This document shows positions 50,410-64,000 of a DNA stretch of 64,000 nt, piece by piece. A program made the position numbers and the translations under genes. Numbering within the stretch: the first letter of the stretch is position 1; each line of letters opens with the position of its first letter. Source of the stretch: Escherichia coli (lineage in GTDB: Bacteria; Pseudomonadota; Gammaproteobacteria; Enterobacterales; Enterobacteriaceae). The DNA lies in assembly GCF_044324875.1 (NCBI RefSeq), contig NZ_CP172185.1. The stretch is one strand, 5' to 3'. The notes below the pieces were generated by a model. That model was not told where the DNA came from. It ran no database searches and saw nothing but the letters and a program-made list of their open reading frames with translations.

Positions 50410-50610
50410 CGTATTTACAGGAGGGGTTACTGCTCTGGCGGGAAGCTCTCCTGTTCTTCCTCCTGATAATCCTTGATCAGGTATTGTTCTTATCTTGTTG
50501 TTATTTCCATTATTCCGCCTGTATTCATCATTTGCTAATCATGAATCATCATTTTCTCTCATGTTAAAGAAAGGTCATTTAATCTGAACGCATAGCGACA
50601 GGGATGACAA

Positions 50611-53600
50611 ATGGCAGGGAAAGCGCATGGGAATGGCGATCGTCGGGGCGATAACACCATATGTGGATTGGGGGATCGTCTACGTCGTCTGACCGCCGGT
50701 ATTTGCCTGATAACACAAACTATTTTCCCTGTTATGGCTGCTGCCCCTACGCATATTAACCCTGCGCATTCGGATACTGCCGCGTCACTGATCCTGCCGA
50801 ACGTTAAAACTATTCCATATACCCTGGGTGCGTTGGAATCGCCACCAACGGTCGCGGCACGCTTTGGTATCACCGTTGATGAATTACGTCGCCTGAATCA
50901 GTTCCGTACCTTTGCGCGGGGCTTTGACAATGTGCGTCAGGGCGATGAAATAGATGTGCCCCTCATTAACAGTAACAGCCCTGAAGCGCGCAACCTGAAA
51001 GCAATGCAGATGGAGCGCGACGGCAAAGATCCGCAAATGCAGGTCGCGGAAGTGGCGCAGCAAAGCGGAACACTTTTAGCGCGCGATATGGACAGCGAAC
51101 AGGCGGCGAGTATGGCGCGTGGCTGGGTGGCTTCTTCTGCATCTGCGCAGGCAACGGACTGGCTCAGTCGTTGGGGAACTGCCCGGGTATCTCTTGGTGT
51201 GGATGAAGATTTCAGCCTTAAAAGCTCGTCATTTGAATTTCTCCATCCCTGGTACGAAACGCCTGATAACCTGGTCTTCAGCCAGCACACACTTCACCGT
51301 ACGGATGATCGCACTCAAACCAACCACGGTATCGGCTGGCGTTATTTCACATCGAGCTGGATGTCTGGCGTCAATATTTTTATCGATCATGACCTGACCC
51401 GCTATCACACCCGAACCGGGATGGGCGTTGAATACTGGCGCGATTACCTGAAACTGAGCGGCAACGGTTATCTGCGCCTCAGTAACTGGCGTAGTGCACC
51501 GGAACTCGACAATGACTATGAAGCACGTCCGGCGAACGGTTGGGATCTTCGCGCCGAAGGCTGGTTACCGGCCTGGCCGCAGCTGGGCGGCAAGCTGGTC
51601 TATGAACAATATTATGGCGATGAAGTGGCGCTGTTTGGTAAAGACGAGCGACAAAACGATCCTCACGCGATTACCGCAGGTTTGAGTTACACCCCCGTTC
51701 CCCTGATCTCCTTTAGTGCCGAGCAACGGCAGGGCAAACAGGGAGAAAACGACACCCGAATTGGTATGGAGTTGACGTTGCAACCTGGTCATTCACTGCA
51801 AAAACAGCTCGATCCGGCTGAAGTTGCAGCTCGGCGCAGCCTTGTGGGCAGTCGCTATGACCTGGTCGATCGTAATAACAATATTGTCCTCGAATATCGC
51901 AAGAAAGAGCTGGTACGGCTGACGCTGACCGATCCGCTGAAAGGCAAGCCGGGTGAGGTTAAATCGCTGGTTTCTTCCTTACAGACCAAATATGCGCTGA
52001 AAGGTTATGACATCGAAGCCGCCGCCCTGCAATCAGCGGGCGGAAAAGTAGCTGTTTCCGGCAAGGATATTCAGGTCACCATTCCTCCCTACCGATTCAC
52101 GGCAATGCCTGAAACCGACAACACTTACCCGATAGCGGTTACAGCGGAAGATTCGAAAGGAAATTTCTCCCGGCGTGAAGAAAGTATGGTGGTCGTGGAA
52201 AAACCCACACTAAGCCTCGCCGATTCAACGCTTTCTGTCGATATGCAAATCCTGCTTGCTGATGGAAAATCAACCTCAACGCTGACCTATACCGCGCGAG
52301 ATTCCAGCGGCAAGCCGATCCCCGGTATGACGTTAAAAACACAGGCAAAAGGTTTGCAGGATTTCGCCTTAAGCGAATGGAAAGACAACGGTAACGGAAC
52401 CTATACCCAAATAGTTACCGCCGGGAAGACGTCTGGCGCGTTATCGCTGATGCCGCAATTTAACGGCGACGATGTTGCTAAGACGCCAGCGCTGATTGCT
52501 ATCGTGGCGAATACGGCATCCCGTGCTGACTCCACGATTGAGACAGACCAGGATAATTACGTCGCGGGTAAGCCGATAGTCGTTAAAGTGACCCTGAGAG
52601 ATGATAACGGCAACGGGGTTACCGGAAGAAAAGAACTTCTCAAACAAGCCGTTAAAGTAGACAACACGAAGGCAGATGCCGTTAGTGCCTGGACGGAAGA
52701 AAGTGAGGGAATTTACAAAGCAAGCTATATGGCTCATCTCATTGGCGACAAATTAACGGCCCAGCTGACGATGCCCGGCTGGCAAACCAAACATTCGGAT
52801 GCGTTCAGTATTGCGGGTGATAAAGATACCGCCAAAATCGCTGCGATGCAGATCACCGCGAATAACGCAGTTGCCAGACGCGATCACAATACCGTCGCTG
52901 TGACGGTCAGGGATGTGCATCAAAATTTACTGCAGGGACAAAATGTTACCTTCACGGTCGTGAATGGTGCGGCGGTTTTTGCCGATCCAAATGGCGGTAT
53001 TGTGACGACAGATAAAGACGGGATTGCCAGCGTTAACCTTGCCAGTGACCAGGCGGTAAACAGTCTTATCAAGGCCGAGATCAATGGCAGTAGTCAGTCT
53101 GTGGAAGTGAGCTTTATCACTGGCGATATCTCGCAGCTGACTTCCACCATCAAGACGGACGATGTGTCATACACCGCGGGTGGCAAGATAAAAGTGTCAG
53201 TCACCCTTATGGATGAGCAGAAAAACCTGGTGAAAGGGATGGCTTCGCTGCTGGCGGGTAGCGGTGTGGTCGAGGTGAGCGGTACAGATAAAAATGAAAC
53301 GGGTACCTGGAGCGAAGAGTCTGACGGCGTTTATACCACCACCCGAACCGCGAAGATTGCTGGCGATCGCCATTACGCCACGCTGAAACTATCGACATGG
53401 AGTAGCGCGCAGCAATCCGATGCGTATGCCATCCGCGAAAGCGGAGCTGTGCTGGCTTATTCCTCCATCGTTACCGACAAAACGACCTACACCGCGGGCG
53501 GTGCGATAAAAGTTACGGTAACACTCAAGGATAGCTATGAAAACCTGGTCGGGGGGCAACGAGACGCTGTCAACCAGGCTATCCAGCTGCCAAATACAAA

Positions 53601-62616: not shown

Positions 62617-62818
62617 AGAACGCTCCTTCCGTTTTCTCTATTCATAGTATTAATTTGATCAATATAAAATAAAGTATTGGCAGAATTGCTCTATCAAAAA
62701 ACGCTCATTTTGTAAGATTGTGATGAAGAAATGAATGAAAGCTGATGCTTAATAATATGAAACGCTGGTCCCATTTTTCGGGACCAGATAGTGGGCGATA
62801 ATTGTGGATGTTACTTAA

Positions 62819-64000
62819 TCAGAAACGTAAATAATCTTTTGCTGAATCAAACAACGCAGTAATGGTTGAAGATAATAATTTGATAATTGTATCGTAGGTG
62901 GAGTTGGCTGTACTGTATTTAGTCGTGATAACCTGCACGTCGGTTTTCATGTTTTCTGCCTGGCTGTTATAACCCGCCAGCCATGCCTGGTATTCAGCCG
63001 TGCTTATTTCGTAGCCGGTGAATTCTTTAGATATATTTTTTTCCTTCCCTTTATCGTCCCTATGCACCATTGAGTCTGAAGACTGACTCATACTGTCTAT
63101 AATCTGAGGGTTGGGAATAATAACATACAGACCGCTACCTTGCGGTTCAACTTCGACAATCGGAGAAGGTGTGCGGTGTTTGGGATCGGGTGGAATTACC
63201 GGAAGTCCTAAAGCGGCGCACCATTTTTCTGCTTCTTCCAGTGGAACGCCAATTTTGTCCGCAGGTGCCGGAGGGTATAAAACATAGTCTGGATTGTAAT
63301 GATAGTGGAAATCACCATTAGGATATTTATCGATATAATAAAAATGCATCAAGGCTTTTTGGAATGCATTGACGTCAAAAACTATCGCATCGCCTTTTTT
63401 ATTAGAGTGAGTCCATTTTCCCATATTGCTTTGGATATGCTCACTGAAGTCCTGCCAGTATGCGCTCATTATCTCAACGCTATTCGCATAAATTTCGAGG
63501 TAGTCGCTACCGAGCACACTCATCAAATCAGCAATATCACTGCATATATATTTATCACTTTTAAATTCGTTTGAACTACTGGCCGTTAAAGTACTGCTGG
63601 TTGCTGAACTTCTCACTTCAGGTGCAGAACTATCTAAAGAAGCGATAGCGTGATTTAAGGTACCTTTGGTCGATGCCATTGCACTTGACCCGGTTGTGTT
63701 GTCAGCAACGTTAGCCAGGGTTTTTCTCACAGAGTTATGCAAGGTCAATATTTTAGCGGGATCCTTTAATTTTCCGTCAATAGTATTAACATTTTCTGTA
63801 AGCTGCAGAACGTTTTTTATCAGCGAATAACTTTCGTGTAAGAGCGCAGATCCCTTCTCTGACAGGTTCTCAGTTGGGAAATTTCTGAGCATGTTTTTAA
63901 CGAAGTTGAGTTGTATGTCATGCTGGCATTTCCAGTCTTCATTTCGCGGGCTACGTTCACTGACTAAAGTTGATAGTTTTTCAACATCTTTCTTGAGCAT
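62819..64000 (-). CDS. eipD: SipD/IpaD-family type III secretion needle-tip/translocator protein, partial (5' end at or beyond the window edge)
   Basis: C-terminus KYSTANSTYDTIIKLLSSTITALFDSAKDYLRF and upstream segments (YQAWLAGYNSQAENMKT; GSDYLEIYANSVEI...W) align with recalled SipD ([50 protein letters not shown]). ORF reaches base 64000. Confidence 0.85.
   Translation of the reverse strand: MLKKDVEKLSTLVSERSPRNEDWKCQHDIQLNFVKNMLRNFPTENLSEKGSALLHESYSLIKNVLQLTENVNTIDGKLKDPAKILTLHNSVRKTLANVADNTTGSSAMASTKGTLNHAIASLDSSAPEVRSSATSSTLTASSSNEFKSDKYICSDIADLMSVLGSDYLEIYANSVEIMSAYWQDFSEHIQSNMGKWTHSNKKGDAIVFDVNAFQKALMHFYYIDKYPNGDFHYHYNPDYVLYPPAPADKIGVPLEEAEKWCAALGLPVIPPDPKHRTPSPIVEVEPQGSGLYVIIPNPQIIDSMSQSSDSMVHRDDKGKEKNISKEFTGYEISTAEYQAWLAGYNSQAENMKTDVQVITTKYSTANSTYDTIIKLLSSTITALFDSAKDYLRF

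Follow-up and report, generated by a model that had tools for sequence, protein, structure and literature searches.

The right-hand end of the window, as we call the whole 64,000-nucleotide stretch of Escherichia coli DNA analysed here, raises the question why a single adhesin gene and its neighbours fall into blocks of very different base composition. The first-pass annotation, made from the sequence alone, had read the blocks of the adhesin gene as modules of different origin and the AT-rich part of the region as classic horizontally acquired, H-NS-silenced DNA. Our analysis suggests a different answer: the region belongs to the known eip island, and the three compositional blocks probably represent three evolutionary regimes within one old island and not three donors, the high GC content of the repeat array having then arisen from a bias acting in situ.

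Judged by its sequence, the region from 50407 to 64000 is the left ~13.6 kb of the E. coli selC-B/eip island, which measures ~18.6 kb in full and carries iatC (= air/eaeX), eilA, eipD, eipC, eipB and eicA at a site between nepI and yicS. This identification is based on the RefSeq annotation of syntenic loci, on NCBIfam and Pfam profile scores and on published descriptions (PMC7058095, PMC4210603, PMC6714894). The window itself holds iatC, eilA and part of eipD; in syntenic genomes ~5 kb more of the island follow to the right of the window end, with eipC, eipB, a small ORF and eicA, and then yicS. This remainder was read from three syntenic genomes which are 98-99.9% identical outside the array, and the DNA identity of the window to the annotated selC-B/eip loci outside the array is likewise 98-99.9%. 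Genes, gene order and site are the same as in the island of enteroaggregative E. coli 042 and ST69, from which nothing essential differs. A variable number of Big repeats in EaeX has been reported before (PMC7058095), and the activation of the eip genes and of eaeX by EilA is published as well. As the island, its genes and its repeat-number variation are already known, the original observation adds only a quantified composition profile and the exact insertion point. The features of the region are as follows.

49225 to 50409, plus strand: nepI, backbone gene, with its stop codon from island DNA.
50407 to 50610, no strand: left end of the island, consisting of the nepI stop codon and the 201-bp nepI-iatC spacer; GC 39.8%.
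50611 to 54063, plus strand: 5′ block of iatC/air/eaeX with the N-terminus, the IAT beta-barrel (aa 149-423) and seven unique Big_1/Invasin_D3 domains; GC 0.52, GC3 0.55.
54064 to 58719, plus strand: tandem array of exactly 16 x 291 bp (97-aa Big_1 units); GC 0.62, GC3 0.76.
58720 to 59672, plus strand: three unique Ig domains of ~103 aa that follow the array; GC 0.52, GC3 0.47-0.54.
59673 to 60867, plus strand: AT-rich distal iatC with the last Ig domains and the invasin D4-D5-like tip; GC 0.40, GC3 0.33.
60919 to 62616, minus strand: eilA, regulator of the HilA/EilA family, 565 aa; GC 0.35, GC3 0.30.
62617 to 62818, no strand: AT-rich eilA-eipD intergenic region, upstream of eilA.
62819 to 64000, minus strand: eipD, probable T3SS tip protein of the SipD/IpaD family, cut by the window end.

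The gene identities which had been proposed without database searches, namely a HilA-like and a SipD-like gene beside an adhesin gene of the inverse-autotransporter type, agree with the profile matches. The iatC allele of the window, with its 16 repeat units, encodes 3418 aa and matches the NCBIfam profile of the IatC N-terminus (NF040978) over aa 1-1065 with 3069.7 bits against a cut-off of 2400, which identifies the protein as IatC. Pfam recognised the beta-barrel (PF11924, IAT_beta; aa 149-423, 360.9 bits), Invasin_D4 (aa 3233-3299) and, in mutually overlapping stretches, 19 matches to Big_1 and 22 to Invasin_D3, while the tip matches invasin 1CWV D4-D5 (residues 297-479, E=3.5e-19). With an IAT beta-barrel, an Ig-like passenger and an invasin/intimin-type tip the protein is a type Ve (inverse) autotransporter, and Goh et al. 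(2019; PMC6714894) place IatC among the inverse autotransporters of the intimin/invasin family. EilA scored 953.8 bits with NF009037 (cut-off 589), which places it in the HilA/EilA family, and includes a Trans_reg_C match (aa 31-104) as well as TPR matches. The truncated eipD ORF scored 120.5 with Pfam T3SS_TC (cut-off 25) and 136.5 with NCBIfam TIGR02553, the latter being under the cut-off of 219.25.

That the region is accessory DNA is supported by its absence from K-12, O157:H7 and UTI89, in all three of which the empty site is identical. The island is carried by 747 of 5426 complete E. coli genomes (~14%) and sits between nepI and yicS, where it stands in place of 52 bp of the empty site. 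Alignment to K-12, O157 and UTI89 places the left junction at 50406/50407, inside the last nepI codons, where homology to all three genomes stops after ...ATGAAG at 50406. The TAA stop at 50407-50409 is therefore island DNA, and NepI has 394 aa here compared with 396 aa in K-12. The first-pass annotation had put the transition from backbone to island into the 200-bp spacer after nepI, which comes close, as the junction coincides with the left edge of this spacer and all of 50410-50610 is island DNA. The sequence from 50407 to 50610 is 99.5% identical to that of strain AF40, is missing in K-12 and contains a terminator-like hairpin (50462-50481) just 3′ of nepI. The label of a "classic" acquisition, however, needs qualifying. 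No integrase is annotated in the island, searches for flanking or terminal direct or inverted repeats yielded no significant ones (chance-level matches only), and no tRNA gene directly adjoins the island, as tRNA-Sec lies ~4 kb beyond yicS with nlpA, yicL and setC in between. A search for the 52-bp empty-site sequence of K-12 inside the island also gave chance-level matches only. The region thus has the presence/absence pattern and the atypical composition of a genomic island (38% GC in its AT-rich half), but not the set of tRNA, integrase and direct repeats of an integrase-mobilised one.

The three-part GC pattern noticed by eye, with a backbone-like 5′ third of the adhesin gene, GC-rich repeats and an AT-rich end, is found again in block GC, segmentation and GC3. 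Against a backbone (1-46000) with a GC content of 0.518 (1-kb windows: mean 0.518, sd 0.052), iatC exhibits values of 0.524 (50611-53750), 0.614 (53751-58750), 0.512 (58751-59750) and 0.400 (59751-60867), followed by 0.373 for 60868-64000; from 59673 to the window end the GC content is 38%. Recursive Jensen-Shannon segmentation placed breakpoints at 54070 (G=156), 58677 (G=34) and 59672 (G=333), far above chance (largest G in 200 shuffles: 14.3), the first two of which match the ends of the tandem array as delimited by TRF (54064-58713). The blocks differ chiefly at synonymous sites (GC3 0.55, 0.76 and 0.33), with GC3 values of 0.545 for the 5′ part, 0.763 for the array, 0.50 for the post-array domains, 0.328 for the tip and 0.297 for eilA. 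Measured as distance to the backbone ORFs, codon usage is indistinguishable from the backbone in the 5′ third (z=-0.8) and atypical in the array (+5.9), the tip (+4.8) and eilA (+6.0). At the nepI/island junction segmentation found no compositional breakpoint, 46442-54070 being one homogeneous segment at 0.506, so that this junction shows up only when other genomes are compared.

For the AT-rich part the composition is that expected of xenogeneic DNA (35-40% GC), and its silencing by H-NS, as had been proposed, is plausible. The density of high-affinity H-NS motifs is ~2.6-fold up in 59.7-64 kb, which is no more than AT-richness alone gives and was therefore not counted as evidence. A 24-bp tandem repeat (62511-62561), located just inside the 5′ end of eilA, borders the eilA-eipD intergenic region. 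A literature search for H-NS acting at eilA, air or the eip genes yielded nothing. The paralogue ygeH has been shown to be H-NS-repressed, Salmonella hilA is reported to be H-NS-silenced, and EilA can take the place of HilA in Salmonella (PMC4210603). Salmonella SPI-1 (hilA, sipBCD, sicA) shares homologous regulator, tip, translocator and chaperone genes as well as the AT-rich composition with the eip island. Unlike SPI-1, the eip island does not contain secretion-apparatus genes, which are found at the separate ETT2 locus, and has a giant adhesin gene attached.

The age of the pattern can be approached through E. albertii, which carries a diverged copy of the island beside yicS with the same composition pattern. 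Amino acid identities between the two species are 76% for eilA, 52% for eipD, 28% for eipC and 27% for eipB, compared with 96% for the flanking yicL, and for IatC 82% over the first 581 aa and ~52% over the distal end. As the contrast between the 5′ and 3′ parts is common to both species, it is old and not the result of a recent graft; the island would either be older than the split of E. coli and E. albertii or have been exchanged by flank homology. The distal end is also hypervariable within E. coli, its last ~400 bp being 62-66% identical to another allele beside a 98% identical eilA. Two of the three regimes may be recognised here. In the first, the membrane anchor and the proximal Ig domains are conserved and keep a host-like composition. 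In another, the receptor-binding tip and the adjoining T3SS regulator and translocator genes are AT-rich and diverge fast, with the composition that H-NS targets, EilA as dedicated activator and H-NS presumably involved.

The remaining regime is that of the stalk, a tandem array of one 97-aa Ig unit with fast recombination inside the array. Its units are 79-99% identical among themselves and <38% identical to the flanking domains. While Goh et al. (2019) saw no evidence of repeat-number variation in IatC (PMC6714894), four complete genomes contain 16 (the window and GN06156), 19 (AF40) and 20 units (E686). The flanks of the array are at least 98% identical between strains, yet its units have no positional orthologues; its GC3 is constant across strains (0.752-0.758). 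Arginine is encoded in the array only by the rare codons AGG and CGG, hence the GC excess does not originate from translational selection. In an unpolarised count over the E. coli array, the more frequent allele is G or C at 26 of the 34 W/S sites in third codon positions. Amelioration towards the host was rejected as the source of the array GC, as the array overshoots the backbone in GC (0.62 vs 0.518) and in GC3 (0.763 vs 0.628 in nepI). Two further candidates were discarded. Chi sites do not serve as a per-unit recombination signal, the array containing a single exact Chi (at 54090). An alternative 3′ end of the gene at the array end, suggested by a megablast class of "76% coverage", is an artefact of unequal array lengths, the 3′ parts being 98.5-99.9% identical.

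We favour a GC bias linked to recombination and acting in situ, and infer that the change ran from AT to GC: recombination within the array would have raised GC at synonymous sites by way of gene conversion or repair that favours G and C. The E. albertii array is built from another unit (103 aa) and has a GC3 of 0.765, and this unit is orthologous to a domain which is not amplified in E. coli and has a GC3 of 0.54 there (best match: the middle post-array Ig domain, aa ~2811). Among Big-domain adhesin genes with near-identical repeats from four bacterial orders, 10 of 10 have a higher GC3 in their repeated codons than elsewhere in the gene (mean excess +0.185, sign test p=0.001; +0.175 when standardised for amino acid content). 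This sample covers Escherichia, Enterobacter, Serratia, Orbus, Zophobihabitans, Pseudomonas and Parapedobacter, with hosts of roughly 37-60% GC; its genes were chosen from matches to the E. coli unit, and each array is effectively one sampled unit. Inside every gene, GC3 rises with best paralogous identity (rho +0.46 to +0.81). It is on this basis a tentative generalisation, and one we hold with some reserve, that some GC-biased process tied to recombination might systematically raise the GC content of near-identical tandem Ig arrays in bacterial adhesin genes at their synonymous sites. Whether gene conversion is GC-biased in bacteria is debated. Such a bias has been proposed for bacteria (PMC4450053), and as in that proposal, in plastid inverted repeats and in eukaryotic multigene families, sequences that recombine often are GC3-richer here than their non-recombining neighbours; unlike in those cases, the repeats stand in tandem inside single adhesin genes. 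A literature search for GC-rich intragenic adhesin arrays or gene conversion in bacterial repeats found nothing specific.

Of the alternatives, the chimera of imported modules survives best, although we regard it as unlikely. In this reading a GC-rich donor would have supplied the repeats and an AT-rich donor the tip, both joined to a host-like 5′ part; such a chimera would account for the sharp breakpoints at module borders, for array codon usage far from that of E. coli (the z-value and rare arginine codons given above) and for a tip that acts as an exchangeable cassette within the species. It would also give the synonymous differences between old and new sub-arrays of Zophobihabitans (46 W>S and 0 S>W at 73% amino acid identity, unpolarised), which fit an import from a GC-richer relative equally as well as a biased process. 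However, no donor of the 291-bp unit was found: the top matches to two array units were all E. coli IatC fragments (~1 kb assembly pieces saturating the list), and long non-IatC proteins, taken as representatives of 50%-identity clusters, reached at most ~49% mean identity to the unit, except the 1142-aa P0242 with 52%. A scan of genome contigs with the whole IatC, by exact-peptide patterns too stringent for other species, recovered no more than two contigs, both from E. coli and wrongly binned in a Collinsella MAG. Moreover, arbitrary donors do not predict GC enrichment in all ten genes across hosts of such different GC content, the E. albertii array stems from a unit whose E. coli orthologue is a domain of ordinary GC3 that was not amplified, and the 5′-versus-3′ contrast is old. 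For the array, the claim of modules of different origin is not supported: one unit occurs 16 times, and a different unit in E. albertii reaches the same GC3.

Selection on nucleotide composition, under which only GC-rich units would be amplified or kept as long arrays, appears improbable. Possible reasons for such selection would be that AT-rich arrays nucleate H-NS or Rho-dependent termination in a gene of 10 kb, or that mRNA or DNA stability sets limits; the AT-rich DNA on either side of the array is indeed of a type bound by H-NS, transcription must cross it to make the tip, and the pattern is universal in the sample. Yet the pattern also occurs in Parapedobacter, a member of the Bacteroidota, a group not known to have an H-NS-type silencer. 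In addition, those Ig domains of the same genes that are not repeated can have GC3 values of 0.2-0.6, and none reaches that of an array, so that filtering of existing units does not suffice by itself. That the GC-rich block arose by chance, or as a by-product of the many Ala, Gly, Thr and Val residues in the repeated Ig domain, can practically be dismissed: GC2 is higher in the array (0.537 vs 0.453), but ~70% of the excess lies at third codon positions, +0.238 remains after standardising for amino acid content, with 15 of 15 amino acids favouring G/C-ending codons, and segmentation G exceeds the shuffle maximum by a factor of 10-20.

A second result could carry more weight: iatC is not alone in having a GC-rich block, which recurs wherever near-identical repeats occur in this adhesin family, and composition-based scans for horizontal transfer will misread such arrays as foreign modules. 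If a recombination-linked bias is the true explanation, the GC-rich block of iatC would be a footprint of array dynamics, and such arrays would offer within-gene test beds for the disputed GC-biased conversion in bacteria. The forces that shape bacterial GC content have long been sought, and should GC-biased conversion be the cause here, repeat arrays of adhesins would constitute a compact and replicated natural experiment on it.

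By its gene order, which in syntenic annotated RefSeq loci runs nepI, iatC ("EaeX/Air"), eilA, a SipD/IpaD-family gene, a hypothetical gene, a YopB/SseC-family gene, a small ORF, a SycD/LcrH-type chaperone gene and yicS, the region is the selC-B/eip island, known before from EAEC 042 and ST69 (PMC7058095, PMC4210603). The first-pass annotation had located the feature correctly, the feature itself being this known island. Goh et al. gave the adhesin its new name, IatC (PMC6714894), and EilA activates the eip genes and eaeX (PMC4210603, PMC7058095). The NCBIfam model for the IatC N-terminus scored 3069.7 bits (cut-off 2400) and the HilA/EilA model scored 953.8 bits on the eilA product (cut-off 589), while the last 200 residues of IatC match D4-D5 of Yersinia invasin (1CWV). 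The window ends within eipD, with about 5 kb of island further on. The adhesin gene and the Pfam matches are:

50611-60867, + strand: iatC (air/eaeX), inverse-autotransporter adhesin gene
IatC residues 149-423: IAT beta-barrel
IatC: 19 matched stretches of Big_1 and 22 of Invasin_D3, overlapping
IatC residues 3233-3299: Invasin_D4
eipD, truncated by the window end: T3SS_TC

The three-part GC mosaic proposed for this region was reproduced in a 500-bp sliding profile and in block averages. Against a backbone (1-46000) of 51.8% GC, with a standard deviation of 5.2 points among 1-kb windows, the first third of iatC (50611-53750) averages 52.4%, the repeat region (53751-58750) 61.4%, a 1-kb transition (58751-59750) 51.2%, the 3'-terminal 1.1 kb of iatC 40.0% and the DNA from there to the window end 37.3%. 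The proposed check of GC and codon usage yielded significant breakpoints far beyond chance: when the whole window was segmented recursively by the Jensen-Shannon method, they fell at 54070 (G=156), 58677 (G=34) and 59672 (G=333), with a maximum G of 14.3 in 200 shuffles. The first two coincide with the ends of the tandem array as called by TRF (54064-58713, 16.0 copies of 291 bp). GC at third codon positions (GC3) is 0.545 in the 5' part of iatC, 0.763 in the array, 0.50 behind it, 0.328 in the 3' tip and 0.297 in eilA, placing the contrast mainly at synonymous sites. Measured against 19 backbone ORFs, codon usage is close to the reference in the 5' third (z=-0.8) and distant from it in the array (z=+5.9), the tip (z=+4.8) and eilA (z=+6.0).

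Homology to the island-free strains K-12, O157:H7 and UTI89 ends after ...AAAATGAAG at 50406. Their almost identical empty site consists of 52 bp (AAATCCTGA...GTTCTTA) between the last shared nepI codon and the yicS body, in place of which the island-bearing strain AF40 carries 18,649 bp with an overall GC of 48.2%. Island DNA provides new stops for both nepI (NepI has 394 aa, not 396) and yicS. The 201-bp spacer 50410-50610 is entirely island DNA (99.5% identical in AF40), and in the junction alignment the transition that had been placed in this spacer proved right to within a few bases, lying at its edge and not inside it. The junction is no compositional breakpoint, 46442-54070 forming one segment in the Jensen-Shannon segmentation. 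A terminator-like hairpin with T-run lies in island DNA just 3' of the nepI stop (50462-50481), and nepI termination in island-bearing strains may depend on island sequence. No integrase was found among the annotated genes of the island, no terminal repeats in a search of its ends and no remnant of the 52-bp sequence within it; tRNA-Sec is about 4 kb beyond yicS. Of 5426 complete E. coli genomes, 747 carry the 5' part of iatC. An IatC of 96-97% identity and the eip genes are also encoded on two contigs (L007, JAIJJM010000277.1; L008, JAIJJM010000039.1) from a MAG labelled 'Collinsella sp.', almost certainly because the bin is contaminated with E. coli.

Two further variable loci lie in the window. 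A RelE-family toxin gene (PF06296) with an HTH_3 antitoxin-like gene (48331-48997, - strand) between yicN and nepI is present in O157:H7 and the island-bearing strains and missing from K-12 and UTI89; this indel is independent of the eip island. A second AT-rich islet with sharp breakpoints (36050-39304, 35.6% GC) between ilvN and uhpA occurs in AF40 and E686, another island-bearing strain, and not in K-12. Its two ORFs had no match in Pfam or PADLOC:

36134..37441: 435 aa
37657..39159: 500 aa

In register, the array (54064-58719) is made up of exactly sixteen 97-aa units, which share 79-99% DNA identity with one another and less than 38% with any flanking domain. The whole 4.7-kb GC-rich block is thus one 291-bp sequence sampled 16 times. 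Strains whose iatC 3' parts are 98.5-99.9% identical carry 16, 19 or 20 units. When the array was compared with those of three further E. coli loci (L001, L003, L004; flanks at least 98% identical), no positional orthologues were found among the four arrays, best matches of 85-100% being scattered in position, and GC3 was steady at 0.752-0.758. This indicates rapid recombination within the array. Units 4 and 14 of the window are 99-100% identical, indicating a recent internal duplication or conversion. Variation in repeat number was noted earlier by Fox et al. (PMC7058095); Goh et al. found no evidence for it (PMC6714894).

Two simple causes of the array's GC excess were rejected. If the amino acids of the array were encoded with the codon preferences seen elsewhere in the gene, GC3 would be 0.513, compared to 0.751 observed, and G/C-ending codons are more frequent in the array for every one of the 15 amino acids that could be tested. 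Translational optimisation does not fit arginine codons that are solely AGG and CGG, both rare in E. coli.

The suggestion that the adhesin was assembled from modules of different origin is probably wrong for the array. No donor was found: the best 120 matches to two units were all E. coli fragments, and among 50%-identity cluster representatives other long proteins reached at most about 49% mean identity, except for one 1142-aa protein at 52%. One of the representatives is a 2448-aa version of IatC that has exactly ten fewer units and aligns at the corresponding array position. Decisive is the comparison with E. albertii, whose orthologue lacks the 97-aa array and has 3.4 copies of a 309-bp unit (97% identity) with a GC of 0.648 and a GC3 of 0.765, between flanks of about 0.50 and a tip of 0.31. 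The best E. coli match of this unit is the non-amplified domain at residue ~2811 (GC3 0.54) at 52% identity, a level typical of that region. Two orthologous genes have hence arrived at the same GC3 by independently amplifying different units.

The same pattern recurs in a survey of proteins with high-identity internal repeats from the representative search, with comparison genes chosen among matches to the E. coli unit, hosts identified and genes fetched. In all ten genes, codons in repeats that share 70% identity or more with the following unit were GC3-richer than the rest:

GC3 in repeat codons and elsewhere in ten adhesin genes
E. coli IatC: repeats 0.753, elsewhere 0.496
E. albertii orthologue: repeats 0.751, elsewhere 0.392
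Zophobihabitans: repeats 0.350, elsewhere 0.226
Orbus: repeats 0.481, elsewhere 0.336
Enterobacter dykesii: repeats 0.794, elsewhere 0.684
Enterobacter bugandensis: repeats 0.771, elsewhere 0.589
Serratia sp.: repeats 0.820, elsewhere 0.615
Parapedobacter: repeats 0.767, elsewhere 0.536
Serratia marcescens: repeats 0.817, elsewhere 0.642
Pseudomonas khavaziana: repeats 0.593, elsewhere 0.530

The mean difference is +0.185 (ten genes; sign test p=0.001) and, standardised for amino-acid content, +0.175, again in ten of ten. In 50-codon windows, GC3 correlates with best identity to other windows in all genes (rho +0.46 to +0.81), although windows within a gene are non-independent and only the ten-of-ten gene count is valid as a test. 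The GC3-rich windows are those at 90% identity or more. Zophobihabitans repeats have a GC3 of 0.22 at 70-90% identity and 0.51 at ≥90%, and relative to the consensus of its older sub-array, that of the recent one (73% aa identity) has 46 synonymous differences from A/T to G/C and none in reverse. AT-rich tips also occur elsewhere, with a GC3 of 0.24-0.32 in S. marcescens, 0.30-0.48 in Serratia sp. and 0.22-0.31 in Orbus. The three-part mosaic is notably clear in S. marcescens (L018, AP028510, 4001-14689: N-terminus ~0.55, array 0.82, tip 0.24-0.32), where the DNA on either side of the gene is AT-rich (37-38% GC) and a phage-type integrase is encoded ~2.3 kb downstream. One locus of Orbus sturtevantii (L013, CP133960) contains three giant inverse-autotransporter genes in head-to-tail order, with products of 6890, 2473 and 3993 aa.

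As domain class and repeat status track composition family-wide, the mosaic is no evidence of stitching from foreign pieces. It is established that GC3 goes with repeat identity, that this association recurs and is synonymous, and that the array reshuffles rapidly. The likeliest source of the GC-rich block, with about even odds, is a recombination-associated GC bias acting in situ on arrays alike enough to keep converting; substitutions would then have run toward GC, with a repair mechanism presumably behind the bias. This is the same idea as GC-biased gene conversion in bacteria (Lassalle et al., PMC4450053). Import of units that were already GC-rich is unlikely, given the missing donor, the E. 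albertii array and the ten of ten genes. Selection on array composition appears quite improbable.

Reading the DNA as horizontally acquired was essentially right, and there is good support for an origin of the AT-rich part outside the core genome. H-NS might silence this part, as its base composition and the control of hilA and ygeH by H-NS (PMC4210603) would lead one to expect. A syntenic island adjoins yicS in E. albertii, with amino acid identities to E. coli of 76% for eilA, 73% for eicA, 52% for eipD, 28% for eipC, 27% for eipB, 52% for the IatC tip and 82% for the first 581 residues of IatC; flanking yicL is 96% identical. Since E. albertii has kept the AT-richness as well as an iatC 5' part of host-like composition, the contrast between the two ends of the gene is an old one. 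Either the ancestor of both species already had the island, or it was exchanged via flank homology. In one E. albertii strain (L011, CP117643, 5433-14014) nepI is missing between yicN and the iatC orthologue, a stop near 7476-7529 splits this orthologue and an IS66-family element (11619-14014) interrupts eilA.

Within E. coli, the invasin D4-D5-like tip of IatC is a hypervariable cassette. Compared with another E. coli allele (window 59900-60867 versus L010 1800-2260), the sequence is 95% identical at 59.6 kb, only 62-66% over the final 400 bp, and 98% again in eilA. EipC of the L010 variant shares 49% aa identity. The variable tip and eipC are allelic cassettes comparable to the intimin subtypes. 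Measured against the open-access literature, the sole part of this analysis that might be new is the GC3 enrichment of near-identical adhesin arrays, seen in ten genes from four bacterial orders.
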